Sequence record: MK524177.1
Reading direction: 5' to 3' (one strand)
Origin: Escherichia phage PHB10
Length of the DNA stretch: 57,228 nt
The notes below the pieces were generated by a model, which saw nothing but the letters and a program-made list of their open reading frames with translations, was not told the origin of the DNA and did not search any database. A program made the position numbers and the translations under genes. Position 1 is the first letter of the stretch, and each line of letters begins with the position of its first letter. Below are positions 166-54,245 of the stretch, one piece after another.

Positions 166-187
166 AAAAAACCCGCCGAAGCGGGTT
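166..187 (-). terminator. intrinsic terminator after the lipoprotein moron
   Basis: GC stem 170-176/181-187 (acccgcc/ggcgggt) followed on the minus strand by a U-run (plus A-run 166-171). Confidence 0.55.
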
Positions 188-203
188 AAGTAGATACGTC
201 AGC

Positions 204-1007: not shown

Positions 1008-1082
1008 GTCCCTATTCCATCAGTAAAAATTGAGATTAATCCTATCAGGAATTGGCATAACGGCAAAATCTGCGGAGGCACT

Positions 1083-3995
1083 TTATCTTGATTTCGTTGC
1101 ATTCCAGATGAGACCTCCAGGCTGGAGCTGTTTGGCTATACCTGCGCGTACTGACTGATCAATGGTCTGCTTGTAAGCCCGAGAAATGGCGTCACTGTCA
1201 TCAGAAGCCTGCTGCTGAGTGTTCTGGTTATGAACGATCACGGACGTTTGAACGGTTACGCCGCCAGTTGCCGAAGATTGCAGCCCATACATCGGGGCGT
1301 GGCCAACATAGCCGCCGTTTGCATATCCCTGAGCTCCACGCATAAGCGCATAGAGATTACCGACACCCAGCGCACTGGTCGCTTCCTTCGTAAACACAAA
1401 CTCACCACCGTGAACTACGCCTTTCGGTTGGTATTTGCCGCCATCACCGGTGTAACCGCCGCTATCGAATCCCGGCACCAGACCGCCACCAGAGAAACCA
1501 AAAAACGCCCCGATACCCGTTCCACCAAAGGCTGACTTCATTCCATTAACCAGAGCCAGTTGAGTCAGCATCTGGGTTATGCCCTTCAGGAAGGTAGTCA
1601 GGAAGTCTGAGAAGTTAGATTTACCAGTAGTAAAAAAGTCAGTGAGTGTGCTGGCCATCCCGGTGAACGCATTGTTGGTAATCGTCTGCACCTGCGAGTA
1701 AACATTAGTCGCGCTGTCCTCAAATTCAGCCCAACCCTTTTTCGCGCCGGTCAACCAGTCGCCACGCAACCTGTCCTCTGCATCATAGTAATCATTCGCC
1801 GCTTTAAGCTGCTTCTGATAGCCCTCGTCGTCAAGCGTGCCGCCAGAGTTGATCCAGCCAGAGGAAAGCTGGCTCTTTGCCAGCTCACGTTGTGCCTGAA
1901 GGTCACTCATTCCGGCACCGTTCACTAATGCAGCCTGCTTTTCTGCCATCTGCGTGACGTATTTCTGCGAGGTATCCATGCGCTTATTCAGCAGTTCTTG
2001 CGCAGAAATCTGATCACCCAACAGGGCTTTCTGCCGCGCTAACTGCAGCACCTGGTCTTTACTCGCGAGCAGGGATTGCTCCTGCTTTGTCAGAGAGCGA
2101 GATCGGGAGGCCTCCTCCAGCACCTGAAATTTCGCTTCAGTCGTCCACAGATCTTTGCGCTGCTGGCTGATAGTGTCGTTCAGCCCTTTATGCTGCTGCA
2201 GCGCGCGTAACTGTGCCTGAAGCGCCAGCAGCTCGGCCTGGGCAGCGTCCGTGCTGCGATCGCCAGCCGATAAAGAGCCCTGCTTTCCGGTTTTGGTCTT
2301 TTTGCCAAAAGAAGCGACTCCTTCCCGATCCTTCTGGGTGGTTGCGGTACTTATCTTTCTGGTCGTATCGAGGTATTTACCTGCACTGATATCAGCGGCA
2401 TCCCAGTCTTTTTTCAGCTGAGAGACGCTGTCGCCATAAGCGCCGGCCATTTGTTCGTTATAGTCCTGCCATCCCTGCAAAGTATCCGTTTTCGCCCAGT
2501 CAGGAATGAGATTAATCGCAGCCGCGATAGAGGAAGAAATGATCTGGTTCAGCTTCTGGAAAACGATCGCTACGCTGTAATAAATTGCGTTGAATTCCTT
2601 CAGTGTGTTTGATGCCAGCTCAGCAACCCACTGACCGATACTCTGCATAGCCCCAGACGCCCAGCCCTTGATATCCAGCCACAGGCGACCAAACGGTGTC
2701 AGCGAGTCGTAAGCCTGCTCTCCACGTTCTGCCATCGTATCGCCAAACAGGTCCATAGCCTGCGTAACGGCCGCTGTCTGGTCCTTTTGCTTCACCAGCT
2801 CATCAATGTGCTTAAGCTGTGAAACGGTCAGGAAATTATATTGTTCGTTGAGACTCTGCAGCGCTTTAACAGGGTCTTTTTCGATGTCCTTATAGGCTTT
2901 GGTGATGTCCTGCGCCGAGACTATACCGGTCTGAACCGCCAGCGCCGTGGAGCCCGCTGCTTTTTCAAGTTGCTGCTGTGTCAGCGATCCCATGCCAACC
3001 AGTTCAGTCATTAAACTCTGAACGGTTCCTACAGTCGCGCCAGTAGAGGCAGCAATAGACTGGGAGGAAGCCATGATCTGGAGCGCTGACGTGCCGGCAA
3101 TGTTGCCAGTCCTGATAATAGCCTTGTTGATTTCGTCGTAGGCGGTGAAGTAGTCCGAACCCGCTTTTGCAGCAATCAGAACAGCACCGGCCAGGCCACC
3201 AATGGCCACTCGGGCAGGAGTCACCATCGACAACATCGCTTTCAGAGCATTGTTTACACCGCCAAACGAATCGCGCAGCTGGCCGCCCTGCTGAATGGCC
3301 ACCATATAAACCGGCATACCGGACGCCAGTGAGGTCACAATGTCGGTCATTTGCATCGGGAGATAACGCATCGCGTTGCGGTATTGCCCCGCGCTGATCG
3401 CTCCTGACTTCCACGCTTCCTCCTGCTCTTTCAGTCGGGCGATCATCGGTGCAGCACGATCGGACACGCCAAGTTGGGCTGCTTTTAGCTCTAATAGTTC
3501 TGCGCGCGTTTTTCCGATTGCTGTGACCTGCTCTTCCAGCGAATCGATAAAGGTTTTGCCCGCCGCAGCTGCACGCTGTGCTGCCTGTGCCTGTTCAATG
3601 CGAGCCCGCCCCTCTGCGGTCTCACACTCCATGACCTGCGCCAGTTTAGCTCGGGTCGTCTCAAGCACGCTGTTGTAGCGAGTAAAGTCTTCATCCCCTA
3701 CCAGCCCTTTACCGCGAAACTTCGCCAGGCTCTCCTGGATCGTGTCCAGTTCATCCAGCGCCTTGTTTACCGGGCTAATTTTATTCAGCAGGTTCTGCAA
3801 CTCCTGGCGCTGTTGCTTCAGACTTTCGCTGTTTTTCTTTTGGTTATCGATACCGGTGCGGAACGTACTGTTCAGGTCATCAGCTTTACCTGCCGCGGCG
3901 GTCGCGGTTTCCTGAAAGCGATCCAGTGCCTGATTGCCGCGCTCCAGCTCACTGGTATTTACACGCAGGGAAATCGTGGCGATATCGTTACTCAT
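1083..3995 (-). CDS. tail tape measure protein (H-like)
   Basis: 970 aa, coiled-coil-rich, Gly-rich C-terminus; lies between the G/GT chaperone and M as in lambda; start overlaps the GT stop (ATGA). Confidence 0.85.
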
Positions 3996-18746: not shown

Positions 18747-19580
18747 CTATTTTGTTATCTGCTTCAGCTGCGCATCAGCCCAAGCTTCTTCGATATCAAA
18801 CTTGGTGATTAACTGATCGTAAAATGGCTTAACAGACTTCTTCCAGCTATCGAGGCTGATTGTATCTGTTATCTGACACACCGCGGCGTAAGCCTCAGTG
18901 GAAGGGATTCGTTCATACCCCCGCCCGCTGCAGCGCTTGCAATGAGCCAGAACCGGAACGCCCTGCTTTTCTGTAAGAGCTCGGTTAATGGCTTTCCCGC
19001 GTCCATGGCAATCTCTACAGGCACAACTAACGACCTTCTTGCCCTTACACTGAGGGCAGAGAACGCGCGCTATCTCCCTGACCCGTCTGCGCACCTCGTA
19101 CTCAGAAGGTCGAATATCTTCGACGCCCATGTGCAAAGACATCTTCACGAATTTCTTCTCTTTAGCCGGAGTGTGAGACTTCATGCTGAATACATCAGCG
19201 TCAATAAACCCTTCCCCATTGCAGCCATCGCACTGCTTCACGCTGGCGGCGCTGCGGGAATAGTCCTCGAACGCGAAGGTGGCCAACTGATGCATCACCA
19301 GTGGCTTAACCCCGGCATCCAGTTTGCGCAGCGCAGCCACCCGATCGCACTTGAACAGCGCATACTGGGCCAGCAATTCGATCGCCCTCTCCCGGTCATT
19401 GTTGCTGATACCCATCTTCCCGAGAAAAGCGCTGTAACCCAAAGCTGCCCGTTCCTGCGTCATGCCCATAGCGGCCATGATATCCGTCCCGGTTAAAGAG
19501 TCTGACGCCGTTGCACGCGGAGAGTCGCTAATCATCGTCGATTTGGCGAAGTGATATTTAAGGGTGTTTTCAAGATTCAT
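18747..19580 (-). CDS. late-gene antiterminator Q-like protein with four CxxCxGxG zinc-finger repeats, putative
   Basis: Position between rusA and the lysis leader; repeats [32 protein letters not shown]. Confidence 0.55.
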
Positions 19581-19951
19581 GCAGTCTCCAGCTCGGTGAT
19601 GGTGAGTTCTAATTTCCCGCCCTTAACGACAGGCATTTTCACAACGCGATAATCCACAACCTGGCAGTCATCAAGCCAGAATCCCGCCTTGGTTAAAGCG
19701 TCGAATGCAGCTTTCTGCAGGTTATCCAGATCGCGGCGCCGGCGATCAGGCATGTGACATTCAATACGAATTTTGAGTAGTGCAGTCGTCCGGATATTTA
19801 ACCGGGCGCTTCGAATGACACTGGCCACGGCATAGCGGTACGCGACGCCCTCAGCGCTAATGTGAGTTCGCCCGCGGTTGTGCCGGTAATACCGGTTGTT
19901 GCTCGGCGGCCAGGGCAAAGTGATTTGATATGTATTCACTTTCACCCCCAC
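19577..19951 (-). CDS. rusA: Holliday junction resolvase RusA
   Basis: Near-identical motifs to E. coli RusA ([56 protein letters not shown]). Confidence 0.9.
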
Positions 19952-20151
19952 ATCCGGTTTCGCCAGCGGCTATCCGCGCGCGCTGGCGTATTTGAGGTTG
20001 GCAGGAATGCACTTACAGTCCAGGTCACGTAATCCGGATTAAGGCTGCGCTCTACTCGCACGCCGCGCGCTTTGTAACGCTTAACCAGTTCTTCGGCCTG
20101 TTCGGTGCTGCAGTCGGTATGGTGAAACCAAGAATATTTCATGCCCTTCAC
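19942..20151 (-). CDS. hypothetical nin-region protein
   Basis: 69 aa ORF overlapping the rusA start. Confidence 0.35.
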
Positions 20152-20750
20152 CCCGCAAAGCCAAGCAGCTGCGCAGCGACATTTTCGGCCTCATCACGAC
20201 TGCGGAATGAACGGGACAGGACCCAGCGCCAGAGGACATCGAGCGCAGCTTTATAGAGTTGCTGGAACTCGAGCTCGTCCATGTTGGCGAATGAGATGCT
20301 ACGAGGGTGCTTTTTGAGGGTGCCGTCAGGTAGCTGAATAGCATCAAAGTGCCCTGCCTCGACGATCACCCAGGAGCGGTAAGCATCGAAGGATTTGCAC
20401 AGGCTAATGCCATTCGTGACGCGCCGGTAAGCAACCTGCTCAAGATACTGCTCAGCAGCATCGATCAGCGCGCCCTCATTCCCGCCATACGAAGCCAGGA
20501 ACCTGGCGTAGCCGGTGATCAGCTTCCGCTCGTTGCTAGATATAGCCCCGCCGGTTGGTTCCCAGTATTCAAAACCGAGATTGAGAAGCGCGAAAAAGCG
20601 CCGATGAAACGCCGGGTTACGTACCCGCCTGAACTCGGCAACAAGAACATCGCCGAACCGGGTTTTGGATTGCAGAATATCGCTGGTCTCGGGCGTAGCC
20701 GGGATCAGTATTCCTGAGTGGTGTTTGATAAGTTGTAATTCTAGCGCCAT
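20148..20750 (-). CDS. nin-region phage protein (DUF1367-like), function unknown
   Basis: 200 aa ORF; family assignment from memory only. Confidence 0.45.
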   Translation of the reverse strand: MALELQLIKHHSGILIPATPETSDILQSKTRFGDVLVAEFRRVRNPAFHRRFFALLNLGFEYWEPTGGAISSNERKLITGYARFLASYGGNEGALIDAAEQYLEQVAYRRVTNGISLCKSFDAYRSWVIVEAGHFDAIQLPDGTLKKHPRSISFANMDELEFQQLYKAALDVLWRWVLSRSFRSRDEAENVAAQLLGFAG

Positions 20751-20789: not shown

Positions 20790-21032
20790 CTATGAAAGAA
20801 TAATATCAGACGGTGGTGTAACTCGGTACCCCAGCCGTTTTGCAAATTGCATAAACCCGTTGAGAGTGAAGATTTCTTCCTCTTCGAGTAACGGTCGTAA
20901 TGAAACTATTCCATTTACTCGATAAACCAGATATCTCCCTTCCGCCGGGAAGCTATAGATAACTGCTTTATCGGCCCTTCTGACCACGTCGTACCATTGA
21001 TCATCTGCATTAAAGGCATCTGTACTACACAC
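20790..21032 (-). CDS. hypothetical small protein downstream of the dinI-like gene (candidate antirepressor)
   Basis: 80 aa, GTG start with GGGGG SD; in the same transcription unit as the LexA-controlled dinI-like gene. Confidence 0.4.
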   Translation of the reverse strand: MCSTDAFNADDQWYDVVRRADKAVIYSFPAEGRYLVYRVNGIVSLRPLLEEEEIFTLNGFMQFAKRLGYRVTPPSDIILS

Positions 21033-21138
21033 TATTTCCCCCAGAGCGACTTATCGACGCGATAAACAGTAATCGGGAACAGCCAGGGGAACGCAAACAG
21101 CGATACTCTTTGAAACTGCTCCAGTGAAATTCACGCGA

Positions 21139-21363
21139 TTAATAAAACCACTCGTCCGCGCTTTCCCAGGTCTCCTGCAGGATATGTTCGACCTCTTTCT
21201 TGTCACCTCCGAAAACAGTCAAACCATCATTACTGGCACGTTTAATCGTTAGCTGGCAATCATCGAATTGCTTGCTAAGTCTTTTGAGCAGTTCTGACTC
21301 GAGAGCAGGTAAAGCTCCATCAGGAAGTTTCTTCATACGATCAATGGTTAACTCAATTTTCAT
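21139..21363 (-). CDS. DinI-like protein
   Basis: MKIELTIDRMKKLPDGALPALESELLKRL...ILQETWESADEWFY resembles E. coli DinI; start at 21363 with GGAGGG SD. Confidence 0.8.
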   Translation of the reverse strand: MKIELTIDRMKKLPDGALPALESELLKRLSKQFDDCQLTIKRASNDGLTVFGGDKKEVEHILQETWESADEWFY

Positions 21364-21382
21364 TATTCCCTCCGCAACGAAC

Positions 21383-21402
21383 AACTGTATGTATATACAG
21401 TA
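21383..21402 (-). promoter_or_regulatory. LexA (SOS) box overlapping the dinI-like promoter
   Basis: AACTGTATGTATATACAGTA fits CTGT-N8-ACAG; TTGCAA-N17-TATAAA promoter immediately upstream on the minus strand. Confidence 0.75.
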
Positions 21403-21789: not shown

Positions 21790-21812
21790 CAAAACCGCCG
21801 TGAGGCGGTTTT
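21790..21812. terminator. bidirectional terminator-like hairpin at the boundary of the cargo island
   Basis: accgcc-gtga-ggcggt with T-run on plus and A-run before. Confidence 0.4.
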
Positions 21813-21944: not shown

Positions 21945-22901
21945 TCATGTATTTTCAGGACAAAGATGCCGGCAGAACCAGTCAACAACCACATTGATGA
22001 CCTCGGGTTGATACCAGTGATAATCACCATGTTCGGCGCCTTCGATAAGTACGTAGTCCGCTTTATTTCCTTCGTCCAAAAGGCCTTCGTAAAGCGTTGC
22101 GCTCTGCTTTGGTGATACTAATGTATCTTTAGTGCCATGCATTATCAGGAATGGAGGTTTGCGCCCTCTAATATGTCCTATGGGGCTTGCATTTATCGCT
22201 TTCTCAGGTGTAGAAGCGATGGATGCGCCTGGAAAGTTCCTGAAAGCAACACCATTAATTAGCAGTGATTCCGTGACCGCAGGAGACTGATGCACTTTTT
22301 GACGGTGATCAGGAAAACCATCACCTATGTTACGCAGGTCTGATATTCCGTAAAGCGTGGCCACAGCCTGCACATCAGCGGACTGGCTGAGAAAATCGCC
22401 GTGTTCGAATGATTTATCGCCATTTGTGGTACCCAGCATCTGAGCCAGCCATCCTCCAGCAGAATCGCCAAATACACCAATTCGTGAGGGGTCAATACCA
22501 TAATCGGGGGCATGTTGACGAAGGTATCTTACTGCTGCTTTAGCATCTACTATTGGTGCAGGGAAGGTATCCGGGATTGTCCTATATTCTGCCGCAGCAA
22601 CAACAAAGCCAGCCTCCGCCAGGGCCATACGCATTTCCATAAATTTGTTGTGCTCAGCCGTCATAAATCCTCCTCCAGGAAAATAGATGATGGCTGGTTT
22701 CAAAAAACTGGTACGAGGCACCAGAAAAGACATGTGTAAATGCCTGACCGAGCGAGTGCTTTTAACTGTCTCATAAACAACATCGCTGATGTTATCTATC
22801 GGGTTACGCGTCATAGCGACCTGAATAATTTCTGCTCCATGAACATAACCGGGAAGATTGTAATGATCAGAAGATACTGCGCCAGTTTGTTTAGAAATCA
22901 T
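21945..22901 (-). CDS. alpha/beta hydrolase (esterase/lipase-type)
   Basis: GDSAGG nucleophile elbow, HGTKD, oxyanion region FPGGGF. Confidence 0.8.
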   Translation of the reverse strand: MISKQTGAVSSDHYNLPGYVHGAEIIQVAMTRNPIDNISDVVYETVKSTRSVRHLHMSFLVPRTSFLKPAIIYFPGGGFMTAEHNKFMEMRMALAEAGFVVAAAEYRTIPDTFPAPIVDAKAAVRYLRQHAPDYGIDPSRIGVFGDSAGGWLAQMLGTTNGDKSFEHGDFLSQSADVQAVATLYGISDLRNIGDGFPDHRQKVHQSPAVTESLLINGVAFRNFPGASIASTPEKAINASPIGHIRGRKPPFLIMHGTKDTLVSPKQSATLYEGLLDEGNKADYVLIEGAEHGDYHWYQPEVINVVVDWFCRHLCPENT

Positions 22902-23090
22902 AAAAAGCTTCCATTGAAAACAGATCTCCGAAGAATCGAATCCTCTATAACTATATCATCCCGTACGAGTCTAGTGAGATCGGTTCTTTCCCTGTATAAC
23001 TAATATAAATATTCATTCTCAAGACTTATCCATGCAAGTACAGTATTTGTGACAAATCCTGGGAAGTGATGTTTTTTCATTCAGAAACAG

Positions 23091-23525
23091 TTACGTCATT
23101 GGATTGCTGTTATTTTTGTTATATTTCAACCTGTCTTCACGAAATCGATCCGCATTTTCGACGATCCAGGTCCATAGCGGAATCATACGAACAAGCAGTT
23201 CCATACCAGTATCAGACAGCTCGTATTCGACTCGTGGTGGAACTTCATTGAAATCATGGCGGATAACAAGGCCGTCCCGCTCAAGTTGTCGTAATGTGCG
23301 CGTCAGCATGCGCTGAGTCACTCCGTGCATACGCCTACCAATCTCAGCATGGCGTAGTCTTCCATACACGCCAAGAGTGTTGATAACACCCAATGACCAG
23401 CGACTTCCTGCATGGGTCAGCACTTCCCGCCGTAAGCCATCATCATCGTCTCTCAGCCCCTTACAAACATCCTGCGAATACTGAAGAATCTCGTCCCGAT
23501 CCATTTCACTGACTCCCGGTATCAT
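23091..23525 (-). CDS. HxlR-family winged-helix transcriptional regulator
   Basis: Motif WSLGVINTLGVYGRLRHAEIGRRMHGVTQRMLTRTLRQLERDGLV; divergent from the NmrA-like gene; start probably 23525. Confidence 0.75.
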   Translation of the reverse strand: MIPGVSEMDRDEILQYSQDVCKGLRDDDDGLRREVLTHAGSRWSLGVINTLGVYGRLRHAEIGRRMHGVTQRMLTRTLRQLERDGLVIRHDFNEVPPRVEYELSDTGMELLVRMIPLWTWIVENADRFREDRLKYNKNNSNPMT

Positions 23526-23594
23526 ACATGTACCTTCTTTTTTAGCCTGTTGTGAATTGCTAGAGTGGCGCAACAATTCATGTAAGGCCAGATT

Positions 23595-24545
23595 ATGAAC
23601 AAAATTGATCTTAACACTACGTCTGAAAATATCCTCGTGCTCGGTGCCGGTGAGCTGGGCCTCCCCGTTCTGCGAAATCTTGCCCTTCGGGCAAAAGATT
23701 TGAAGGGAACAAAAATCAGCGTGCTGTTGCGCGAAAGTACCTTAACTTCAGATGAACCTGGAAAAAAATTAGTTCTCAAGGAAATCAGAAACCTCGGTAT
23801 TAATATTGTCACAGGTGATCTCGTCATGAGTTCTGTCGACGATTTGGCCAGCCTCTTTGCGCAATTTGACACAGTCGTTGGCTGCACGGGGTACGCGGCT
23901 GGAATAAATACACCGATGAAACTGGCGCAGGCGGCTCTGCAGGCGCGGATTCCACGATATTTTCCATGGCAGTTTGGTGCCGATTTTGATGCCATCGGAC
24001 GCGGCAGTCCACAAGACATCTTCGACGCGCAGATTGACGTGCGTGATTTACTACGCAGCCAGCATGAAACCGAGTGGGTCATCATTTCGACCGGCATCTT
24101 CATGAGCTATTTGTTCGAACCAGACTTCGGTGTGGTCGATCTACAGAACGATACTGTTCACGCACTCGGCAGTATTGACAACACCATGACGCTGACAACA
24201 CCGGATGATATCGGGATGCTAACGGCAGCGATTGTATTTAACACTCCTCGCATTCGGAACGAAATTGTATATATCGCCGGTGATACACTGACCTACGCAG
24301 ATGTGGCAGATAAGCTGCAATCAGCGCTTGGCCGTCCTTTCAGCTGCACGGAATGGAGCGAACAACATCTGATGGATAAACTGGCGCTCAACCCGCAAGA
24401 CATGATGTCTAAGTATCGTGCCGTTTTTGCACAGGGGCGGGGAGTTGCTTGGGATAAAAAGCAGACATTCAATGAACGCCATAACATTCCGGTTACCGAT
24501 GTGGCAGCCTGGATTAATGCAAACCTGATCCCAGGCAGCTCATGA
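23595..24545 (+). CDS. NmrA-family NAD(P)-binding oxidoreductase
   Basis: N-terminal Rossmann motif VLGAGELG; typical HxlR/NmrA divergent pair. Confidence 0.75.
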   Translation: MNKIDLNTTSENILVLGAGELGLPVLRNLALRAKDLKGTKISVLLRESTLTSDEPGKKLVLKEIRNLGINIVTGDLVMSSVDDLASLFAQFDTVVGCTGYAAGINTPMKLAQAALQARIPRYFPWQFGADFDAIGRGSPQDIFDAQIDVRDLLRSQHETEWVIISTGIFMSYLFEPDFGVVDLQNDTVHALGSIDNTMTLTTPDDIGMLTAAIVFNTPRIRNEIVYIAGDTLTYADVADKLQSALGRPFSCTEWSEQHLMDKLALNPQDMMSKYRAVFAQGRGVAWDKKQTFNERHNIPVTDVAAWINANLIPGSS

Positions 24546-24652
24546 TAGACGTATTTAGGCTGCTGTAATAAATACCAGAGTCTTTCTCCTGCCTACCCGA
24601 ATAGGTGATGAGAAAGACTCTGTTCCCCCTGTTGGCACTGATAGTAAAGCGG

Positions 24653-25513
24653 TTAAGCTGTGTGAGCTGAAAACCGGCTCTCCGGTAAACCGGGGAATAC
24701 GGCTGATTTCGCTCTTAGCAGCGCTCCATCATGCCTTGACGGCACAGAAAGACCCACGCTGGCACTAGTACAATACAGCGTTGTGAATGCTTCTCCCGCG
24801 AGTGTCGGGCAAGTGCTCTGAATTCCTGGGGAGGGCAGGATACGATCCGTCGTTCCGTCCGGACGATAACGTACAACACGGCTTCCTCCCCATTCGGCAT
24901 TCCAGATATAGCCCATTGCGTCCACGCAGGAGCCGTCAGGCGCCCCCTTTCCCTCTGTTGCAGTGAACACACGCTGGTTATTCATAGTGGGATAATCACA
25001 GCACAATATACGGCCCTGCATCGAGTCACAGTAATACATCGTGCTGCCGTCCGGACTGAAGCAGATGCTGTTCGGGATGGACACCTCAGGCAGGGGTAGC
25101 GTTTCAATGCTGAGTGTCGCTGCATTTAGCCTGTGAAATTTTCCGATGACTTTCGCGGGGTACCCGTCATCCATGGTCCCGAAGACGAAATTACCCTCAC
25201 GGTCGCACCGACCATCCCCTGTCCGTGTTCCCGGCCCTCCCGGTGACCCCACTACCGGTGTAAAGATACCCGTATTCAGATCGCAGAAGGCGAATCTGGA
25301 CGCCAGCCCCATCAGTAAAACGTCAGAATTTTCAGTAAGTGCAAACGATCCGAGGCGCTCAGGCAGCGACCAGCGCATCACAACACCGGTATCTTCTTCA
25401 AGGGCAAGCAGCTCGCTGCCTTCAATGTCAGTCCAATAAATCCTGCGAGTCCTCTCGCACCAGATTGGGCACTCTCCAAGCAAATTTCTGGTATCAGCAG
25501 CCACTGAAAACAT
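24653..25513 (-). CDS. SMP-30/gluconolactonase/LRE-family protein
   Basis: Beta-propeller-like repeats (GECPIW, DxxG motifs); start MFSVAADT at 25513 with GGGAGA SD. Confidence 0.75.
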   Translation of the reverse strand: MFSVAADTRNLLGECPIWCERTRRIYWTDIEGSELLALEEDTGVVMRWSLPERLGSFALTENSDVLLMGLASRFAFCDLNTGIFTPVVGSPGGPGTRTGDGRCDREGNFVFGTMDDGYPAKVIGKFHRLNAATLSIETLPLPEVSIPNSICFSPDGSTMYYCDSMQGRILCCDYPTMNNQRVFTATEGKGAPDGSCVDAMGYIWNAEWGGSRVVRYRPDGTTDRILPSPGIQSTCPTLAGEAFTTLYCTSASVGLSVPSRHDGALLRAKSAVFPGLPESRFSAHTA

Positions 25514-25611
25514 GTTATTTCTCCCGCATATAAAAGTTTCGCATCGCCTGAACAATAGCTTACGGCCATCTGCACTATGGCAGAGCGCCGTAAGGAGCAT
25601 TCCCCACCCTG

Positions 25612-26085
25612 TCAGGGCAAAAAACGCGCTGAAAGTTTGTCACCAAAAAGCATGATGGCGAGTCCTGCCAGCATGACCAGCATGCCCCCCAGTTTGAGCA
25701 GCGAAACCGGTCGCCTAACAGCACCCAGCAGACCGAAATGGTCAATCATTTGCGACGAGAGTAACTGCCCAACGATTGCCAGCCCTAGCAGAGCTGAAAA
25801 ACCGATTTTCGGTGCCAGCACTACGTAGCTGAATAACGCACAGGCACCGATCAGACCGCCCGCCAGACTCCACGCAGGCTGCGAAGGAATAGCAGCGAGA
25901 GAGGTAAATAACCCTCCACGAAGCAGCGAGTAAATCCCGAGACTCAACGCCCCGGCCGTAAATGAGAAGAATGCGGCGGTAACCGGGTCCCCCCCGAGTC
26001 CTTTTGCAAGCTGACTGTTCAGGGTCGTCTGCAGAGTAATACCAAGACCCGCTGCAAAAGCTATTACGTAATAAATCGCGCTCAT
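25612..26085 (-). CDS. small DMT-superfamily membrane transporter, putative
   Basis: 157 aa, four to five hydrophobic helices. Confidence 0.65.
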   Translation of the reverse strand: MSAIYYVIAFAAGLGITLQTTLNSQLAKGLGGDPVTAAFFSFTAGALSLGIYSLLRGGLFTSLAAIPSQPAWSLAGGLIGACALFSYVVLAPKIGFSALLGLAIVGQLLSSQMIDHFGLLGAVRRPVSLLKLGGMLVMLAGLAIMLFGDKLSARFLP

Positions 26086-26099
26086 GCTGTTTTTCCCTG

Positions 26100-27497
26100 T
26101 CAGTTTGCCTGTACCAGCGGCAGAAATTTCTCCGCAAAGATGTCCGGCTCATACCCGGCGGCAGCAAAAAGGTGTTCGCGTGATTCATCGATGGCAGCAC
26201 GAAGACGCTCGCTGTCCACGCCCAGAACTTTACCGTTCTTCTTGACGATGCGCCCGCCAATCATAACGGTATCGATGTTGCTGCGTTCAGTTGCATGCAC
26301 CACCGTCCCGAAGGCATTCCCGTTCGGGTAGAGATTGAGATCAGCAGCATTAATCAGGATCAGGTCGGCCTGTTTTCCTGGCGTCAGGCTACCCACTTTA
26401 TCCTGTAGCCCGGCACAGGTCGCACCATCGACGGTCGCCGACTTCAGCAGTTGCGCTGCCGGGAGCGTTGTTATTGAATGCCCTGAATCACAGCAGTGCT
26501 GCTTATGCATACCCATTACTCGCTGCAGATAGAACGCCACGCGCATTTCCATAAACATATCTGTGCTGTAAGACGTTTCGTTATCCACGCTCAGGCCAGG
26601 ATTGATGCCATGGCGCTGTGCGGCCTCAATGGCAAACATCCCGCTTTCAATGCCATAGTGCGAATCTGAGCGCGGACAGACGTTCACCCGTACGCCGGCT
26701 TCACGCAGGATTTCCCAGCCCTCATCAGGTAGTGCGGTACAGTGGTTGAAGATATTGTCCGGGCCAAGCAGACCCTGCCGATGCAGAGATTCAAGCTCGG
26801 AGGCCATCTCAGCACCAAAGAATTCGGTCACGATCGGCAACCCCAGCCTGCGCGCTTCAGCCCATAATTCTGGCTCCAGCTGAGCCATAACCCCCAAAGT
26901 CACAAGACCCTCTGGGTTATCCCTGAAATACTTTTCCTGCAGACGCTGCCAGTTACCTGGCCAATGTGCACGATCCCATTCACCCGCAACCGGTGCGCCG
27001 GAAGCATGAATGGCGCGAATGCCGCTATCAAGCAGAGCCTCGACTGCAGCGTCGGAATGCGCTGCGGTACGGCTGTTATGCGAGTTATCGATCATCGTAG
27101 TGATACCCGCGTCAATCGCGCCCAGCGCCGTCAGCAGGTTGCCGACATAGATATCTTCAGGACGGTAATATTTAGCGAACGAAAAGTGCGTGGCGTTGCT
27201 GTAGTCGTCCAGACAGGTGGCGTTGGGGTTGATGCGGCGTAGCTGACCTTCCCAGGCGTGACGATGAGAATCAACCATCCCAGGCATGGCAATCATATTT
27301 TTGGCATCAATAACACGAGCACCTGGCGCGTCAAGGTTCTGACCAACGGCGGTAATGATTGAGCCGTTGATGAGAATGTCACCGCGCTCAATATTACCGA
27401 CGCTATCGTCCATACTCAGTATGGTTGCGCCGCGAATCAGCGTTACCGGCGGGTTTTCCGTCTGTTTCTTAACAATATTTCTGTTGTAATTGGTCAT
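26100..27497 (-). CDS. amidohydrolase-family metal-dependent hydrolase (deaminase-like)
   Basis: 465 aa with metal-binding motif MPGMVDSHRHAWEGQ and conserved downstream His/Asp residues. Confidence 0.8.
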   Translation of the reverse strand: MTNYNRNIVKKQTENPPVTLIRGATILSMDDSVGNIERGDILINGSIITAVGQNLDAPGARVIDAKNMIAMPGMVDSHRHAWEGQLRRINPNATCLDDYSNATHFSFAKYYRPEDIYVGNLLTALGAIDAGITTMIDNSHNSRTAAHSDAAVEALLDSGIRAIHASGAPVAGEWDRAHWPGNWQRLQEKYFRDNPEGLVTLGVMAQLEPELWAEARRLGLPIVTEFFGAEMASELESLHRQGLLGPDNIFNHCTALPDEGWEILREAGVRVNVCPRSDSHYGIESGMFAIEAAQRHGINPGLSVDNETSYSTDMFMEMRVAFYLQRVMGMHKQHCCDSGHSITTLPAAQLLKSATVDGATCAGLQDKVGSLTPGKQADLILINAADLNLYPNGNAFGTVVHATERSNIDTVMIGGRIVKKNGKVLGVDSERLRAAIDESREHLFAAAGYEPDIFAEKFLPLVQAN

Positions 27498-27639
27498 TGT
27501 AATCGTCTCTTTCAGATTAAGAAGGAAAACGATACGCCTCCCGATTAAGATGAAAAAGATGACTAACGTGTTTTCATAATTCAGAATTAACGAATAATAA
27601 TGGTTAACAACTTTACACGATATTCAGGAGAGCAGTCAG

Positions 27640-28527
27640 GTGGATCGCATTCAGGCTATGCAGGTTTTTTTAAGGGTGGCTGAAGCCGGAAGCTTTGTCA
27701 GGGCAGCGGAAACACTGTCCCTGCCTTCCTCTACTGTTACCAGCACCATCAAAAACTTGGAGAAATATCTGCAGGTGCGTCTGCTCAACCGGACCACAAG
27801 GAGGGTCAGCCTTACGTCTGAAGGTCTGCAATACCTGGCGCAATGCAGGGAAATCCTTGCCTTAATTGAACATACTGAAGCCAGTCTGGCTGATTCGAAC
27901 AAGCGCCCCCGGGGCCGCTTACGCGTTGATATGCCCGGCGGTATAGCCCATTTCATCGTTATGCCAAATCTGAAAGAATTCTACAGCCGGTATCCTGATA
28001 TTTACCTGATGATCGGTGTCAGTGACCGGCAAGTTGATCTGGTTCAGGAGGGTGTGGATTGCGTGATCAGAACCGGAGATTTGCTTAGCTCAACACTTGT
28101 TGCCCGTCCGCTTGGGCAGTTCCGCTGGATCACCTGCGCCTCTCCCGAATATCTCAGAAAGTATGGTATTCCACAGTCACCTCAGGATTTATCTCATCAC
28201 AGGGCTATTCATTATTTTTCAGGGCAAAACCGACGTACAGACGAATTGCGTTTTGTACATGGAACAGAAACGCTGTCTGTATCCGTCAGCGGGCAGGCAG
28301 CCGTCAATGAGACGGGACTCTATATAAAAATGTGCCTCGAAGGGTTCGGACTGGCGCAGCTTGCTGAAAACGTTGTAGCAGAACACCTGCAAAAAGGAAC
28401 ACTGGTTGAAGTCCTGGCCGACTGGCAGCCGTCGTCTGTTCCTGTCACTTTGCTTTATCCCCATCAGCGTTTTCTTTCACCCGCCGTACGCGCATTTGCA
28501 GACTGGGTAGATGAAATCTTTAGTTGA
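27640..28527 (+). CDS. LysR-family transcriptional regulator
   Basis: N-terminal HTH (MQVFLRVAEAGSFVRAAETLSLPSSTVTSTIKNLEKYL) and LysR substrate-binding domain. Confidence 0.85.
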   Translation: MDRIQAMQVFLRVAEAGSFVRAAETLSLPSSTVTSTIKNLEKYLQVRLLNRTTRRVSLTSEGLQYLAQCREILALIEHTEASLADSNKRPRGRLRVDMPGGIAHFIVMPNLKEFYSRYPDIYLMIGVSDRQVDLVQEGVDCVIRTGDLLSSTLVARPLGQFRWITCASPEYLRKYGIPQSPQDLSHHRAIHYFSGQNRRTDELRFVHGTETLSVSVSGQAAVNETGLYIKMCLEGFGLAQLAENVVAEHLQKGTLVEVLADWQPSSVPVTLLYPHQRFLSPAVRAFADWVDEIFS

Positions 28528-28725
28528 TATGTCTGTTACAGCCACCCGAGCACATTAAAAGTCAGCAGTATTCAGGATACCTGGCAGGACGGCAGGCTTT
28601 GCTTCGCGGATGCGTCCATTCCGGAACGGCGGCTTCACAGGTAAAGAGCTGTACCCAAAAATTCAATTCTCCGTTTTAAAAGTAACGCCTCCGGCTAAGA
28701 ACCCCAGCCGCATCCGGGGCCTCTT

Positions 28726-29619
28726 TTAACTGAAATGTCTGAGTAAAATATCTTCAAGGATGTGAAAAACGGTCCTGATGCGTTGCGGTACAAGGGTCTG
28801 ATAGGGCCGGTAAAGATAAAGCTGCCAGGTTTCCAGTTTTAGTTCCGGTAAAACATTCACCAGCCTGCCGTCTTCGAGATATTCCCTGCAGGCCAGATTA
28901 CTCGACTGGATCACTACTTTACCGGCTAATGCAGCCTGAATCTCAGACTGGGAGTCGGTAGTAATAAATTCAAGATGTCGTGGTACAAAAGTATCGACGC
29001 CATCGAGCATATATTCGAATACTTTGCCGGTATCAGGATTCAACAGGCCACTGAAAGGATAGCGCTGGCGCAGATCGTCGAAATTTTCCGGCGCACCCAG
29101 CCGCTCAATGAGCCCGGGAGATGCCATCAGCGCGTGATGAACAAGCGTAATGGGCCTGATAATAAAGTTCGGATTTGGCTCCCGCTCAATACGGATCCCC
29201 ATGTCAATGCGGTTCTGAACAGTATCCAGCTTCATCATGTCCAGCCGCCAGTCTATAAACAGCTCAGGATAAGGACGAAGCGCATTCAGAAGCTCATAGA
29301 GTACCTGTTCGTGCCCGGGAAAGCGAAACAGGGTGATCCTCACAATCCCCTTCATCTCATTGTCATCTCTGGCCGTTTGAAACAGGGCCTCTGAATCCTC
29401 AAGCAAACGAAGGGCCCCCGGCAGGAAGAGCTCACCAAAGCTGGTCAGCACAATAGATCGGGTATTCCGCTTAAAAAGTGGCTCGCCGAGCTGATTTTCC
29501 AGTTCAGCAATAGTGCGCGTCACCACTGAAGGAGAAATGGCCAGTCTGACCGCTGCTTCACGAAAATTCATCGTTTCTGCAGCGGCAACAAAAAATTTCA
29601 GCGCATCTAGTTTATTCAT
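28726..29619 (-). CDS. LysR-family transcriptional regulator
   Basis: HTH LDALKFFVAAAETMNFREAAVRLAISPSVVTRTIAELE; divergent from the AKR operon; start probably 29619. Confidence 0.85.
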   Translation of the reverse strand: MNKLDALKFFVAAAETMNFREAAVRLAISPSVVTRTIAELENQLGEPLFKRNTRSIVLTSFGELFLPGALRLLEDSEALFQTARDDNEMKGIVRITLFRFPGHEQVLYELLNALRPYPELFIDWRLDMMKLDTVQNRIDMGIRIEREPNPNFIIRPITLVHHALMASPGLIERLGAPENFDDLRQRYPFSGLLNPDTGKVFEYMLDGVDTFVPRHLEFITTDSQSEIQAALAGKVVIQSSNLACREYLEDGRLVNVLPELKLETWQLYLYRPYQTLVPQRIRTVFHILEDILLRHFS

Positions 29620-29736
29620 GATTGTTGTTTTTTTAGCAATTCTGACTTTCAAAATTAACAATTTTTATGCAACAAATCCAGCCATATACTTAACCGCTCT
29701 AAAACATCACTGAGTTAAGAAAAGTCAGGATTCACT

Positions 29737-30702
<966 letters not shown>

Positions 30703-30717
30703 AAATAAGAGATCGAA

Positions 30718-31233
30718 ATGAAAACAACTGTATTTGTTACCCATCCCAATATTCATCTGTCCCGTGTTAACTCGGCGCTGGCAAATAGTGCAGCTTCACT
30801 GCCCGATATTAATGTACGTTATCTGTATGACATGTATCCGGATGGTAAAATCGACGTGGCCGCTGAACAGGCTGCGCTGGAAAATACCGATCGTATTGTG
30901 CTGCAGTTCCCGATGCAGTGGTACAGCACGCCGCCACTTCTCAAGCAGTGGCTTGATGATGTACTGACCTACGGCTGGTCACATGGTGGCGAAACTCAGG
31001 CGCTGCATGGCAAGCAACTCATGCTGGCAGTTTCGCTCGGTGGTGCTGAGTCTGCGTATCAGCCTGATGGAGCAGCCGGTCATACGGTTAGCGAATATCT
31101 GCTGTCCTTTGAAACAATCTCCGGGTATCTGGGTATGCATTATCTCAAGCCTTTCATTACCGGCGGAAGTGCGACGATCACCGACGGGGAAATTGCGGCA
31201 CAGGCTGAACGCTACAAAACGGTATTAGTCTGA
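30718..31233 (+). CDS. flavodoxin-like NAD(P)H-dependent oxidoreductase
   Basis: 171 aa, flavodoxin-fold-like; 15 nt downstream of the AKR gene (operon). Confidence 0.65.
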   Translation: MKTTVFVTHPNIHLSRVNSALANSAASLPDINVRYLYDMYPDGKIDVAAEQAALENTDRIVLQFPMQWYSTPPLLKQWLDDVLTYGWSHGGETQALHGKQLMLAVSLGGAESAYQPDGAAGHTVSEYLLSFETISGYLGMHYLKPFITGGSATITDGEIAAQAERYKTVLV

Positions 31234-31481: not shown

Positions 31482-32168
31482 CTATGCCCTCCCATCAGCC
31501 TTCATTCGCTCATATTTGGCTTTCAAAAGCTCCGCTGGAGTTGGCCCTTTCGATGCCACTGGCGCTGCCAGCGCCCTACGAACAGGCGGAATTGGCTTCC
31601 CGGACAGCACTCGCTTCTCCCACATACCCAGAATCTCGCCAGCCTCGCGCTCGAGCTCTTTCTGACACAACTGGCCATCGGTTCCGCGGCGACGCAGTTC
31701 GAGGCAGATGTGGTAAAAAACCGGCTTTGGCCAGGGATACTGCTCGCTGCTCGGGTACCGGAACACCAGCTTGCGCCACTTCCAGTATTCAGCCATCACG
31801 TCAGCGGTGGTGATCCCCAGCACACAGCGCCCTTCCCTGCACCACTTGATGAACTGGCCTGGCGAAGGCAGGAATGGACGCTCCTGACGACGCACCATGC
31901 GCATTCCCGCTTCAACCTGCTCCAGAGTGGTGATCCCGTTTTCTTTGAACGCCAGCACCCACTGACGGCGAATCTCGTTCACGTCTTCCTGGCTGCGGTT
32001 TACCAGGCTTGCCGGAAACGCAGCCGCCAGCTGTACGAATAGCCCGTTGATAATCTGGGCCACCTGCTGCGTTTGCTCGCGCTCGGTGTACTGCTCAGGC
32101 AGGTTATGCGCCACACGGCGAGCCTGTTCCCGGTCAAAATTGCGAATGCTCTCGGCAAGATTTTTCAT
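31482..32168 (-). CDS. replication protein P (helicase loader)
   Basis: Strong similarity to lambda P as I recall it (NFDREQ.RR.A.N.PEQY, QVAQIINGxF, RRQWVLAF.ENGITT, RPFLPSPGQF). Confidence 0.85.
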   Translation of the reverse strand: MKNLAESIRNFDREQARRVAHNLPEQYTEREQTQQVAQIINGLFVQLAAAFPASLVNRSQEDVNEIRRQWVLAFKENGITTLEQVEAGMRMVRRQERPFLPSPGQFIKWCREGRCVLGITTADVMAEYWKWRKLVFRYPSSEQYPWPKPVFYHICLELRRRGTDGQLCQKELEREAGEILGMWEKRVLSGKPIPPVRRALAAPVASKGPTPAELLKAKYERMKADGRA

Positions 32169-33115
32169 TCCAGCACCCCGTCAATCCAGTCGGTGTTATG
32201 CAGGTCAATACCGCCCCGTGATGGCTTTACCGTTCCGGTAGCGCGTAGCCGTTTGGTAGTGAGCTGATCCCACTGCTTGCGCAGACTCGAGGGGCTCAGG
32301 ATGTTGTCTTTCCAAAACTCGTCCCGGTTGGCCCACTGGAACAGGTCACAGATTTCGTAGTGAGTACGCTTGTCCTGGACGCGCATCAGCCTGATGGTGT
32401 TTGCCCATTCAGCCCAGTTGGGCTCGGATAGCGATGCGTTGACGGTGAGAAGCCTGTCGTAAATCCAGCGGGCGGCCTTGAGGTCGTCAGCGGATCCCCA
32501 TGATTTACCTGCCGGGGTGTATATCCCGTCGGCAGCTTCAGGATGGCGAGAGAGAAACTTTTGAGTTTTCTGGTTTCGGGATTCGTCAGAATTCCGAGAC
32601 GAGGATCTTTTAATATTGTTCTTGTTATAGTCTTGGGTGTCTACCGTTTCCGGGAAGGTTTTTCCCGTTTTCGGCAACACTTTTCCCGATTTCGGGAAGA
32701 CTTTTCCCGTTTTCGGTTTGTCTAAAATCCAGGCGGAAAGGTCAGTATTTATACCGACCGTTTTCATCACCCCCTGCTTCTGACTGAAGATAATTTTGCG
32801 TTCAGCGAGTGATTTGAGCGCATCCGAAACGTGGGAATCACTCAGCCCTGTAAGCTCGGCGATCACCGTGTTCGTAACGCGGTCCTGCTTCTTGTTCCAG
32901 CCGTAGGTAAGCCAGATCACCGCCTCAAAACACTGCCACTCCCGGCCTGACATTCTCAGACGAGGCTTAAGCTGTTGGATCTCGTTAGCGACCTTGGTAT
33001 ACCCGTTCGACAGGTCGGCCATACGACCTCCCGGTTGTTCGGTTCTTTGGGGGAAATTGATAATTTCAGCTGTGTTTGACATACTTAGCTCCGCAATTAC
33101 ACTCCGTTTTTGCAC
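32165..33115 (-). CDS. replication initiator O-like protein
   Basis: Upstream of P with overlapping stop/start; contains the ori iterons, which encode the repeated PKTGK peptide. Confidence 0.8.
   Translation of the reverse strand: MQKRSVIAELSMSNTAEIINFPQRTEQPGGRMADLSNGYTKVANEIQQLKPRLRMSGREWQCFEAVIWLTYGWNKKQDRVTNTVIAELTGLSDSHVSDALKSLAERKIIFSQKQGVMKTVGINTDLSAWILDKPKTGKVFPKSGKVLPKTGKTFPETVDTQDYNKNNIKRSSSRNSDESRNQKTQKFLSRHPEAADGIYTPAGKSWGSADDLKAARWIYDRLLTVNASLSEPNWAEWANTIRLMRVQDKRTHYEICDLFQWANRDEFWKDNILSPSSLRKQWDQLTTKRLRATGTVKPSRGGIDLHNTDWIDGVLE
32628..32711. repeat. replication origin iterons inside the O gene
   Basis: Three 21-bp repeats TTTTCCCG(T/A)TTTCGG at 32649, 32670, 32691 plus a partial inverted copy at 32634; AT-rich stretch at 32590-32627. 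Confidence 0.7.
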
Positions 33116-33166: not shown

Positions 33167-33718
33167 TCACATTGCCCCCAACATGGTTGTGACCATCGCC
33201 AGCAGCGGCGCCGTAAGGTCCGGATCGATCCTGAACATTTCGAAAATCCCCTCGCCTAACTCCTTCAGTTTTTCCTTCTTCGGTGCATCGAGCATCAGAG
33301 CTTGCTTCGCCTCACTTACCTCTTTTTCCAGCCGGGCCATTCGGTAAGCAAACGAGTCGTTCTTTACGACACGGTCGCGGTATCGAAGCGGCAATACAGA
33401 CATGATCGCGGGCACCAGCTGTTCGACGTTCTTTCGGTACGATACGGAGTCTTCTTTGTTGTCGAGCCAGCGGAACAGCTTCACGTTCCAGACATCGGCC
33501 TGGCCTGAGAAATCCACGCCATCAAGTTGAAGTTCTTCCGCCGCTTCTTGGATTTGAAGCGCAACAGCTACGCGCCCTTCTGCCGCTGCCCACGCCCGGA
33601 CTGCAGAACAAATATCGCGATGATCAATATCCTGCTCTGCCGATTTGCTTTGATGACACGGGAATATCATTGGATTAGAGCAAGCTCTGCTACTCTGTTG
33701 AAATGAAACAGTTTGCAT
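33167..33718 (-). CDS. hypothetical regulatory protein in the cII position (YdaT-like?)
   Basis: 183 aa ORF between the cro-like gene and O. Confidence 0.35.
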   Translation of the reverse strand: MQTVSFQQSSRACSNPMIFPCHQSKSAEQDIDHRDICSAVRAWAAAEGRVAVALQIQEAAEELQLDGVDFSGQADVWNVKLFRWLDNKEDSVSYRKNVEQLVPAIMSVLPLRYRDRVVKNDSFAYRMARLEKEVSEAKQALMLDAPKKEKLKELGEGIFEMFRIDPDLTAPLLAMVTTMLGAM

Positions 33719-33720
33719 AG

Positions 33721-33948
33721 TTAAGGTTCCTGTTTAGGTAAACCGTCGGTGGGGTTTGGATAGAGATCGGGTCGTAACTCGTGGGGAGTTACTCCGGTCA
33801 TTTTAAAAATGGGAAAGATGTAGTTTGGAGGGACGATCCCATGGTCACGATTCTTCCAATGACTTACGGACATACTCGTAACACCTAGCGCGATGCTGAG
33901 CTTTCTGGCTGAGCCAGCAGCTTTAATTGCTTTATCGAGTGCGGACAT
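33721..33948 (-). CDS. Cro/YdaS-like HTH regulator
   Basis: 75 aa, HTH KLSIALGVTSMSVSHWK, ELRPD motif; divergent from the repressor; AGGAGAAG SD. Confidence 0.7.
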   Translation of the reverse strand: MSALDKAIKAAGSARKLSIALGVTSMSVSHWKNRDHGIVPPNYIFPIFKMTGVTPHELRPDLYPNPTDGLPKQEP

Positions 33949-34050: not shown

Positions 34051-34425
34051 ATGAGAAAAGAAGAACCCAACCTCCTATTGGTGGACCGCCTAACTGAGAT
34101 CACAGATCGTGGCGTTACCAAAGCAGACATGGCACGAATAGCTGGAGTCACCCCTCAGGCCGTAAACGGCTGGTTCAAAAAAGGCGTGATCAGTAAGAAA
34201 TCGGCACTGGCTATAGCCGATGCTGTAGGCATTTCAGTCGCCTGGCTACTTGGTGAGGATGTTGGAGAGAAGGACGGCCTTAAGCCGGACGAGCAGCGCT
34301 TACTAGAACTCTACCGCCAATTGCCAGAAGAAGAGCAGCAGAACATGCTTCGTATCTTTGCGCTTCGCTTGAAGGAGTTGGATGAGCTGTATGAGAAGTA
34401 CATGAAAGGGCGCATAAAAAATTAA
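34051..34425 (+). CDS. prophage repressor (XRE-type HTH, no peptidase domain), probably leaderless
   Basis: HTH TKADMARIAGVTPQAVNGWFKKG plus coiled-coil C-terminus; no SD before ATG 34051 and a -10 hexamer 7 nt upstream. Confidence 0.65.
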   Translation: MRKEEPNLLLVDRLTEITDRGVTKADMARIAGVTPQAVNGWFKKGVISKKSALAIADAVGISVAWLLGEDVGEKDGLKPDEQRLLELYRQLPEEEQQNMLRIFALRLKELDELYEKYMKGRIKN

Positions 34426-41032: not shown

Positions 41033-41245
41033 ATGTCGCAGGTAATATTTAACGAAGAATGGGTTGTTGGCGCAAGGCTCACAGAAAAAACAGGCCTGAC
41101 CGAACGACAGATTGAGAAGTATCGCCAGGGCTGTTGGGTGGAAGGTGTCCATTTTAAACGGGTTTCTCCTTCCGGAGAAAAAACCTTGCGTGGCACAACC
41201 TGGTACAACTATCCGAGAATTAATCAGTTAATAAGGGATGCGTAA
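41033..41245 (+). CDS. xis: excisionase
   Basis: 70 aa basic protein immediately upstream of and overlapping int. Confidence 0.7.
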
Positions 41246-42740: not shown

Positions 42741-42811
42741 TCTTTAGCCAGTGCGCCACCCTTATTCTCCCTGCCCTATACTTTAAGTCTGACATCTGGT
42801 TCGAGGTTTCT

Positions 42812-47195: not shown

Positions 47196-47197
47196 AC

Positions 47198-47617: not shown

Positions 47618-47632
47618 TGCACACACCTCAAA

Positions 47633-47652
47633 TACTGTTTTTATATACAGTA
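47633..47652 (-). promoter_or_regulatory. LexA (SOS) box upstream of umuDC
   Basis: TACTGTTTTTATATACAGTA fits CTGT-N8-ACAG, 16 nt upstream of the umuD start. Confidence 0.8.
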
Positions 47653-54238: not shown

Positions 54239-54245
54239 ATTGCGC

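Follow-up and report, generated by a model that had tools for sequence, protein, structure and literature searches.

A putative LexA-controlled dinI and antirepressor operon of the GfoA/GfoR type in Escherichia phage PHB10

The sequence of Escherichia phage PHB10 (MK524177.1; 57,228 nt, referred to here in its entirety as the window) carries on its minus strand a LexA (SOS) box followed by a dinI homologue (21363-21139), a small GTG-initiated open reading frame (ORF) for a protein of 80 amino acids (aa) (21032-20790) and a DUF1367 gene (20750-20148). We regard this locus as very probably the induction module by which a Gifsy/Rac-like temperate phage from the Enterobacter group senses the SOS response, and as a putative, unannotated addition to the system of LexA box, dinI, antirepressor and short repressor, in the GfoA/GfoR branch, whose mechanism is known from the Salmonella Gifsy phages. 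The original prediction, made from the DNA letters alone, had proposed a candidate SOS-dependent antirepressor unit at this place, and the homology of the 80-aa protein to the GfoA family and the Gifsy-like layout of the operon both support it. Our analysis covers the sequence elements and how far they are conserved, the families to which the three proteins belong, and the pairing of antirepressor and repressor families across phages.

In the Gifsy prophages the induction operon lies outside the immunity region (Lemire, Figueroa-Bossi and Bossi 2011; PMC3121763). It runs from a LexA box promoter through a dinI homologue and a small antirepressor gene that begins with a non-canonical codon to an irsA homologue, and the antirepressor binds a short repressor, which stays uncleaved on induction, and frees it from DNA (PMC3121763). 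According to the prediction, the inducers of Gifsy-type phages are antirepressors under LexA control, one of them transcribed together with a dinI homologue; this agrees with the account of 2011, and the locus in the window matches that system feature by feature. It too is outside the immunity region, with the repressor gene about 13 kb away, the replication genes P and O upstream at 31482-33115 and the antiterminator gene Q downstream.

The putative antirepressor gene and its predicted LexA-controlled operon

The 80-aa ORF (20790-21032, minus strand) was found where the prediction had placed it, on the same strand as dinI, with a GTG start and a GGGGG Shine-Dalgarno sequence. Its ratio of non-synonymous to synonymous substitution rates (dN/dS) is about 0.2 (0.16-0.22 against the homologues of a Klebsiella phage, coliphage mEp237 and Salmonella phage SEN34), compared with values above 1.2 in the other two frames, and the ORF is therefore protein-coding. 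A non-AUG start occupies the aligned position in all 114 homologous ORFs (GTG in 83 and TTG in 31), with a purine-rich Shine-Dalgarno sequence ahead of it.

We identified GfoA through the termini encoded by published primers and through the Salmonella ORFs found with the 5' primer. The GfoA primers (PMC3121763 Table S1) encode the termini MSNSALQK... and ...RRLGYRVTPPSDI, and 30 Salmonella prophage contigs contain a TTG-initiated ORF of 82 aa that starts (L)SNSALQK and contains RRLGYRVTPPSD. These primer-matching ORFs are 63-65% identical to the ORF in the window, which ends KRLGYRVTPPSDIILS. The 40-nt arm of the gfoA::3xFLAG primer had no exact match in the viral contigs, and the full GfoA sequence of strain ATCC14028 was not recovered. 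In the PHROGs database, phrog_340 is matched by the window protein (expect value (E) 1e-17), by the Salmonella GfoA-type ORF (6e-21) and by Rem of E. coli (4.4e-21). By these matches the 80-aa protein is a putative member of the GfoA/GfhA branch of the Gifsy antirepressors, and a search with the family profile found it to be the only member in the window. We considered a second antirepressor or LexA-controlled phage regulatory unit in the window and rejected it, as the profile finds one ORF and the other LexA box is umuDC-like.

The family is small, with 38 clusters recovered when its profile was run against 1.84 billion representative proteins, and it has largely escaped annotation. Neither Pfam nor NCBIfam has a model that matches the 80-aa protein, or any for GfoA, GftA or Rem, and the label of PHROG 340 is "unknown function". 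In the closest E. coli relative, which is 94% identical (210205630, NZ_CP015912.1; locus L001, 15349-15736), the NCBI annotation leaves the ORF uncalled, although it sits there between the DinI-like and DUF1367 genes. AlphaFold, run with an alignment of 35 sequences, predicts four antiparallel strands followed by one helix (mean predicted local distance difference test score (pLDDT) 84, above 90 in the core), and this model is the first confident fold prediction for the GfoA-type family, which has no solved relative. We also note that the antirepressors P0017 and P0019 from Enterobacter cloacae are of the Salmonella GfoA type over residues ~8-40 (SEDTWYDIVRRSDGCVVFSFPSSGRHLIYRVNG) and identical to the window type elsewhere, which indicates recombination within the gene.

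The LexA box at 21383-21402 reads AACTGTATGTATATACAGTA on the plus strand, or TACTGTATATACATACAGTT in gene orientation. It had been described as a perfect SOS box, and this holds for the site and its CTGT-N8-ACAG core, whereas the full 20-mer has two mismatches to the E. coli-type consensus TACTGTATATATATACAGTA used for the comparison. The TTGCAA-N17-TATAAA promoter that the box was said to overlap is likewise present, with its -35 hexamer TTGCAA at 21433-21428 and, after a 17-nt spacer, its -10 hexamer TATAAA at 21410-21405 (both on the minus strand and read from the sequence), but the box abuts the -10 hexamer at a distance of 2 nt and overlaps neither hexamer, so that it would cover the expected transcription start instead. 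A simple promoter scan missed this promoter because it demands a T at position 6 of the -10 hexamer. The end of the box is 19 nt from the dinI ATG, and a GGAGGG Shine-Dalgarno sequence lies within these 19 nt. Sites with up to three mismatches to the LexA 20-mer number two in the 57-kb window, with 0 expected (100 shuffles), and the second, at 47633-47652, precedes a umuDC-like operon.

This arrangement is strongly conserved. Homologues of the small ORF are carried by 115 loci, 99 of which extend upstream by 450 nt or more and were used to count LexA boxes, and in all 99 a CTGT-N8-ACAG box is found at the expected distance, in 38 sequence variants in which the centres vary and the half-sites are invariant. 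The end of the box precedes the dinI start by 19 nt at 82 loci, by 18 nt at 15 and by 20 nt at three (100/101 at 18-20 nt), and 19 nt is also the distance in the Salmonella Gifsy and chromosomal dinI genes (PMC8072944 Table 1). Both promoter hexamers, the spacer between them, the box and the Shine-Dalgarno sequence are kept across 67 distinct upstream variants, among which the sequence diverges directly upstream of the -35 hexamer; TTGCAA is retained in the Enterobacter-type variants, and the -10 hexamer of the relatives is either TATAAA or TATATA. Remote homologues of 35-40% identity in Salmonella phage SPN3UB, Citrobacter phage Chris1 and Aeromonas phage pAEv1818 all follow directly after dinI, and a LexA box is present at each of these loci as well (with one half-site mismatch in pAEv1818).

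The first gene of the operon (21139-21363, minus strand) encodes a protein of 74 aa which, as predicted, is a DinI homologue (Pfam DinI E 2.5e-22, 79 bits against a cut-off of 24 bits; phrog_189). It aligns with E. coli DinI (1GHH; E 1.3e-13) over a region that includes the ILQETWESADEWF helix and retains ILQETWESAD-WF, the C-terminal acidic helix that contacts RecA. Its score against the NCBIfam DinI equivalog (74 bits) is below the 111-bit cut-off, and we therefore call it DinI-like rather than an orthologue of the chromosomal protein. The third gene (20148-20750, minus strand), 39 nt after the 80-aa ORF, encodes a DUF1367 protein of 200 aa (Pfam E 4.4e-90) that is 82% identical to STM1020 of Gifsy-2 ("irsA homologue"), and the irsA deletion primer of PMC3121763 corresponds to the start of STM1020. 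Downstream, a 69-aa ORF, RusA and Q follow with overlapping ends (18747-20151, minus strand; Pfam RusA and Antiterm).

The dinI and antirepressor genes are separated by a 106-nt spacer (21033-21138, minus strand), which ends in GGGGGAAATA and places the GGGGG Shine-Dalgarno sequence at 21038-21042. Homologous spacers are found in the Enterobacter, Klebsiella, E. coli, Salmonella GfoA and Gifsy-2 gftA loci, and it may be noted that the spacer is thus also kept upstream of the unrelated-looking gftA. A hairpin in which CCCCU at 21085-21089 would mask this Shine-Dalgarno sequence was considered and could not be established: no significant RNA structure was found in the spacer, a single-sequence fold was no better than shuffled sequences (z +0.76), and the pairs proposed by RNAalifold are mostly invariant, with too few independent lineages for covariation to be judged.

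The repressor and its pairing with the putative antirepressor

The presumed target of the 80-aa antirepressor is the GfoR/GfhR-type short repressor of 124 aa encoded at 34051-34425 (plus strand). The prediction that it has a helix-turn-helix (HTH) and lacks an S24 peptidase domain was confirmed, as Pfam finds HTH families alone (HTH_3) and no Peptidase_S24 in it; an S24 domain occurs in the window only in the UmuD-like product of 47198-47695. The AlphaFold model comprises a five-helix HTH domain (residues 8-66), a linker and two C-terminal helices (79-90 and 93-121). Published GfoR primers encode an MKEKTHQ N-terminus and a EKYMKGRIRTRED C-terminus, both of which fit the repressor of one Salmonella locus (L026), a protein with which the window repressor shares 62% identity. 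It ends ...ELDELYEKYMKGRIKN, and the C-terminus ...EKYMKGRI is common to it and the protein matching the GfoR primers. Identity is lower to GftR (26%) and to DicA (28%, E 2e-11), both domains being spanned, and the score against the NCBIfam DicA subfamily (32 bits) is under the cut-off of 101 bits. A PDB sequence search with the repressor returned only spurious polyubiquitin matches. The immunity region also holds a Cro-like HTH gene divergent from the repressor gene (33721-33948, minus strand; from the ORF list), with a YdaT-like gene downstream of it (33167-33718).

The two families travel together. Among 50,697 phage records there are antirepressor matches in 16 and repressor matches in 29, and 14 of the 16 carry both, a pairing which holds down to about 35% identity of both partners (in an Aeromonas phage). 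When we compared 17 selected diverse repressors from antirepressor loci (16 without the divergent one of locus L035), mean pairwise identity was 60% in the N-terminal HTH region and 82% in the C-terminal module, and a nearly invariant antirepressor (95-98% identity) occurs with at least five HTH N-terminal types that share the same C-terminal module. GfoA and GfhA have each been reported to act on both of the heteroimmune repressors GfoR and GfhR, and the association of one antirepressor with several HTH types is an apparent extension of this dual action. As the antirepressor allele is constant, the HTH variable and the C-terminal helical module conserved, this module is most likely the surface that the antirepressor contacts.

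By homology to Gifsy-1 and Gifsy-3 we infer that LexA binds the box, that the antirepressor binds the repressor, and that induction depends on the operon. In a lysogen, host LexA on the box would cover the transcription start and silence an operon of dinI, the antirepressor gene, the DUF1367 gene and possibly RusA and Q. DNA damage would activate RecA, LexA would cleave itself and the operon would be transcribed, whereupon the 80-aa protein would be translated from its weak GTG start, bind the short non-cleavable repressor, most likely at the conserved C-terminal helical module, and strip it from its operators. The divergent early promoters would then be derepressed and lytic growth would begin; the DinI homologue probably modulates RecA filaments and would be dispensable for induction.

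Experiments with the Gifsy prophages bear on several of these steps. Expression of the antirepressor alone from the arabinose promoter PBAD, with no DNA damage, led to lysis and high phage titres, and non-polar deletions of dinI and irsA were without effect on induction (PMC3121763). A frameshift in gftA abolished induction of Gifsy-2 (PMC3121763), from which it follows that the inducer there is a protein, and one single-nucleotide polymorphism in the -10 region of PdinI-gfoA abolishes Gifsy-1 induction in strain D23580 (PMC5322425). The biochemistry of antirepressor and repressor has been published for GfoA-GfoR and GftA-GtgR, with the stable complex reported as A2B2.

Other readings of the locus and its genome context

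Several observations weigh against the locus being the induction module of its own phage. The 80-aa protein gives no BLAST alignment to GftA or Rem themselves; comparison of its family with Rem by hhalign was not significant, and it does not group with the GftA family (phrog_4847), the only link to which was an hhalign match of E 0.0014 with 17% probability over 49 columns. AlphaFold, given a paired alignment, returned no confident complex for a repressor-(GGGGS)6-antirepressor fusion (predicted template modelling score 0.42, antirepressor pLDDT below 55), though the shallowness of the alignment and the reported A2B2 make-up of the real complex make this a weak test. In one viral locus (L049; IMGVR_UViG_2851649467_000003, 2266-2964), a unit of dinI and a 97.5%-identical antirepressor stands beside a CI-like repressor of 232 aa with an S24-type C-terminal half, which indicates that the cassette also travels in phages not expected to need it for their own induction. 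Finally, locus L035 from Salmonella pairs a GfoA-type ORF with a GftR-like repressor only 32% identical to that of the window, and such mosaics mean that carrying the module does not prove the resident repressor to be the target.

These mosaics and the chimeric antirepressor alleles fit the trans-acting antirepressors already documented, among which FsoA of Fels-1 is dispensable for its own phage (Lemire 2011, PMC3121763), and so keep alive the reading in which the locus is a mobile cassette of the nin region, with an antirepressor that acts mainly in trans on the repressors of other prophages and an induction of its own phage that is independent of it. We give this a small chance. The GfoR-type repressor resident in the window lacks a cleavage domain and must be inactivated by some route, while the window holds a single GfoA-family ORF and a single LexA-boxed phage regulatory unit, and the joint occurrence of the two families in the phage records also speaks for a resident target.

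The dinI promoter lies upstream of Q (18747-19580, minus strand; Pfam Antiterm) on the same strand, as originally stated, and a scan of this strand from the promoter to the Q stop codon turned up no terminator-like site. Upstream, the region is set apart from the replication genes by a hairpin and a cargo island (about 9.3 kb, genes in both orientations). This makes the LexA promoter the nearest upstream promoter for Q and read-through plausible. SOS read-through from this promoter into Q is thus compatible with the sequence, and together with the overlapping gene ends and the conserved RecA-binding helix of the DinI-like protein it might be taken to mean that the main output of the promoter is the tuning of RecA by DinI, or transcription of RusA and Q, with the small ORF of minor importance. 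We think this improbable, and a little more so than a cassette acting in trans, as the Gifsy dinI and irsA deletions left induction unchanged and the small ORF is under clear purifying selection. Moreover, the lysis and phage release obtained with the Gifsy antirepressor alone show that Q is expressed there independently of LexA cleavage and that read-through is not required in the model system. That the 80-aa ORF is no gene at all and the interval between dinI and DUF1367 non-coding, for which its non-AUG start, the want of a Pfam or NCBIfam family and the missing NCBI call might be cited, is scarcely credible given the dN/dS contrast between frames, the 114 intact ORFs that keep start position and Shine-Dalgarno sequence, the 38 representative clusters, the confident fold prediction, and the loss of Gifsy-2 induction on a frameshift in the same slot.

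With the induction module as the preferred reading, we put forward a tentative joint proposal that we hold to be possible although on balance doubtful: one almost invariant antirepressor allele would serve as a master key to repressors of at least five heteroimmune types in Enterobacter-group prophages, through their shared C-terminal two-helix module and not the variable HTH domain, and the LexA promoter would also supply Q by read-through, the nin/Q region being severed from the early right operon by the cargo and the hairpin. Both parts go further than the Gifsy model as published. If the first part were true, one SOS event would co-induce sets of prophages with unrelated immunity, and if the second were, the licensing of late genes would be directly under SOS control.

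The strong hairpin in which the cargo genes end is a terminator-like, bidirectional element at 21791-21812, with a 9-bp stem flanked by A and T runs, and it sits ~360 nt upstream of the dinI promoter, farther than the palindrome of Gifsy-2. It would insulate the dinI operon from the cargo genes. The island itself (21945-31233, between replication gene P and the dinI promoter) encodes a BD-FAE esterase, HxlR, NmrA, SGL gluconolactonase-like, YdcZ exporter, amidohydrolase, two LysR, aldo-keto reductase and flavodoxin-like proteins. In the E. coli relative mentioned above (L001) the same position is occupied by defence-like genes, which encode a restriction endonuclease, a SEC-C and a HEPN protein, and the slot between P and the dinI promoter looks like a hot spot for cargo.

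The second near-consensus LexA box in the window (47633-47652, TACTGTTTTTATATACAGTA) belongs to the umuDC-like operon (45927-47695), which encodes the UmuD-like Peptidase_S24 protein (47198-47695) and a UmuC-like polymerase of 422 aa. The umuDC pair is a classical LexA target, and with a gene for an SRAP (SOS-response-associated peptidase) protein nearby (42701-43486), the phage carries several SOS-linked cargo genes. A homologue of Ivy (inhibitor of vertebrate lysozyme) between the lysis and packaging genes (14588-15082) is possible host-interaction cargo. The integrase gene is at 41238-42485. Tail genes are found at both ends of the window (1-3995, including the tape measure gene at 1083-3995, and 50789-57228, including minor tail L, K, I and a J-like tip protein at 57104-50789), and as their order is continuous across the ends, the window looks like a circularly permuted complete genome of a temperate phage of ~57.2 kb.

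A megablast search of the phage collection with the locus found no match, and a near-identical copy is present in one of 5,426 complete E. coli genomes. It should also be noted that eleven loci from the viral collection (L042, L048, L066, L077, L095, L099, L101, L108, L109, L112 and L114) begin inside dinI, 331-335 nt ahead of the antirepressor ORF, and that for several of them this start is the end of the source contig. The recurrence suggests a break, in assembly or at the prophage boundary, where a repeated module has its edge.

Comparison with known induction systems

By every sequence criterion, what appears to be the GfoA/GfoR system is present in Enterobacter-group phages and in relatives from E. 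coli, Klebsiella, Citrobacter and Aeromonas. The main value of this result is for annotation, since the antirepressor lacks a model in Pfam and NCBIfam and PHROGs lists its family as of unknown function, a gap that concerns an experimentally characterised family. To what was known we add the link between GfoA, Rem and PHROG 340, the observation that the Pfam and NCBIfam models are missing, a fold prediction, and the argument for the C-terminal module as target. Recognising the family would allow the prediction of prophages whose induction by SOS goes by way of LexA and not of repressor cleavage, and of prophages that may cross-induce one another, which is relevant to antibiotic-triggered phage release and the spread of cargo, here the umuDC-like operon and the metabolic island.

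The closest known system is GfoA/GfoR of Gifsy. It shares with the window the order of LexA box, dinI, small non-AUG ORF and irsA/DUF1367 gene, a terminator-like palindrome before the LexA box, and a location that is upstream of Q and lies outside the immunity region. The antirepressors are of one family (63-65% identity to the ORFs matching the GfoA primers) and both repressors end in an ...LRLKELDxxYxKYMxxRI module, with 62% identity to the GfoR-matching protein. The two systems differ in host group, the window phage being Enterobacter-like and the GfoA system belonging to Salmonella Gifsy, and in the N- and C-terminal tails of the antirepressor (...SDIILS in the window and ...SDNMKSTA in GfoA). 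In the window the promoter is TTGCAA-N17-TATAAA with the box after the -10 hexamer, whereas Gifsy has TTGAAT and a box that overlaps the -10 region, and the operon is separated from the replication genes by ~10 kb (the cargo island) compared with 1.3 kb in Gifsy-2. The HTH domain of the window repressor also differs from that of GfoR, which implies another immunity specificity. The biochemistry of GfoA is experimental, while the system in the window is known from its sequence.

GftA of Gifsy-2 is a more distant counterpart. The Gifsy-2 record maps dinI to 11119-11352, the GTG-initiated gftA to 11464-11685 and STM1020 to 11768-12370, so that gftA, like the 80-aa ORF, occupies the slot between dinI and STM1020, behind a homologous spacer, and encodes a small protein (73 aa). 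GftA is nevertheless placed in PHROG 4847 rather than 340 and has no BLAST similarity to the 80-aa protein, and its repressor GtgR (GftR) is 26% identical to that of the window; GfoA and GfhA were inactive on GtgR in published work. Rem, the antirepressor of DicA in the Qin prophage of E. coli K-12, was found by iterated searches from GfoA (bioRxiv 10.1101/2023.04.14.536235). Like the 80-aa protein it falls in phrog_340 and is encoded in the region upstream of Q, but the Qin annotation has hokD upstream of rem and no adjoining dinI.

Further afield, Tum of coliphage 186 and AntC of N15 (for which we rely on the discussion in Lemire 2011, PMC3121763) resemble the window in that LexA represses an antirepressor gene whose product disables a non-cleavable repressor. 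Tum differs in having the DinI-like and antirepressor functions fused in one protein of 146 aa and in the opposite order, and as its C-terminal half is DinI-like, the association of DinI with antirepressors is a recurrent one. Lambda CI and P22 C2 likewise couple prophage induction to the activation of RecA, but do so by self-cleavage, whereas the repressor in the window has no S24 domain and the SOS signal would be relayed through LexA and a separate antirepressor. Such a relay would in principle be reversible.

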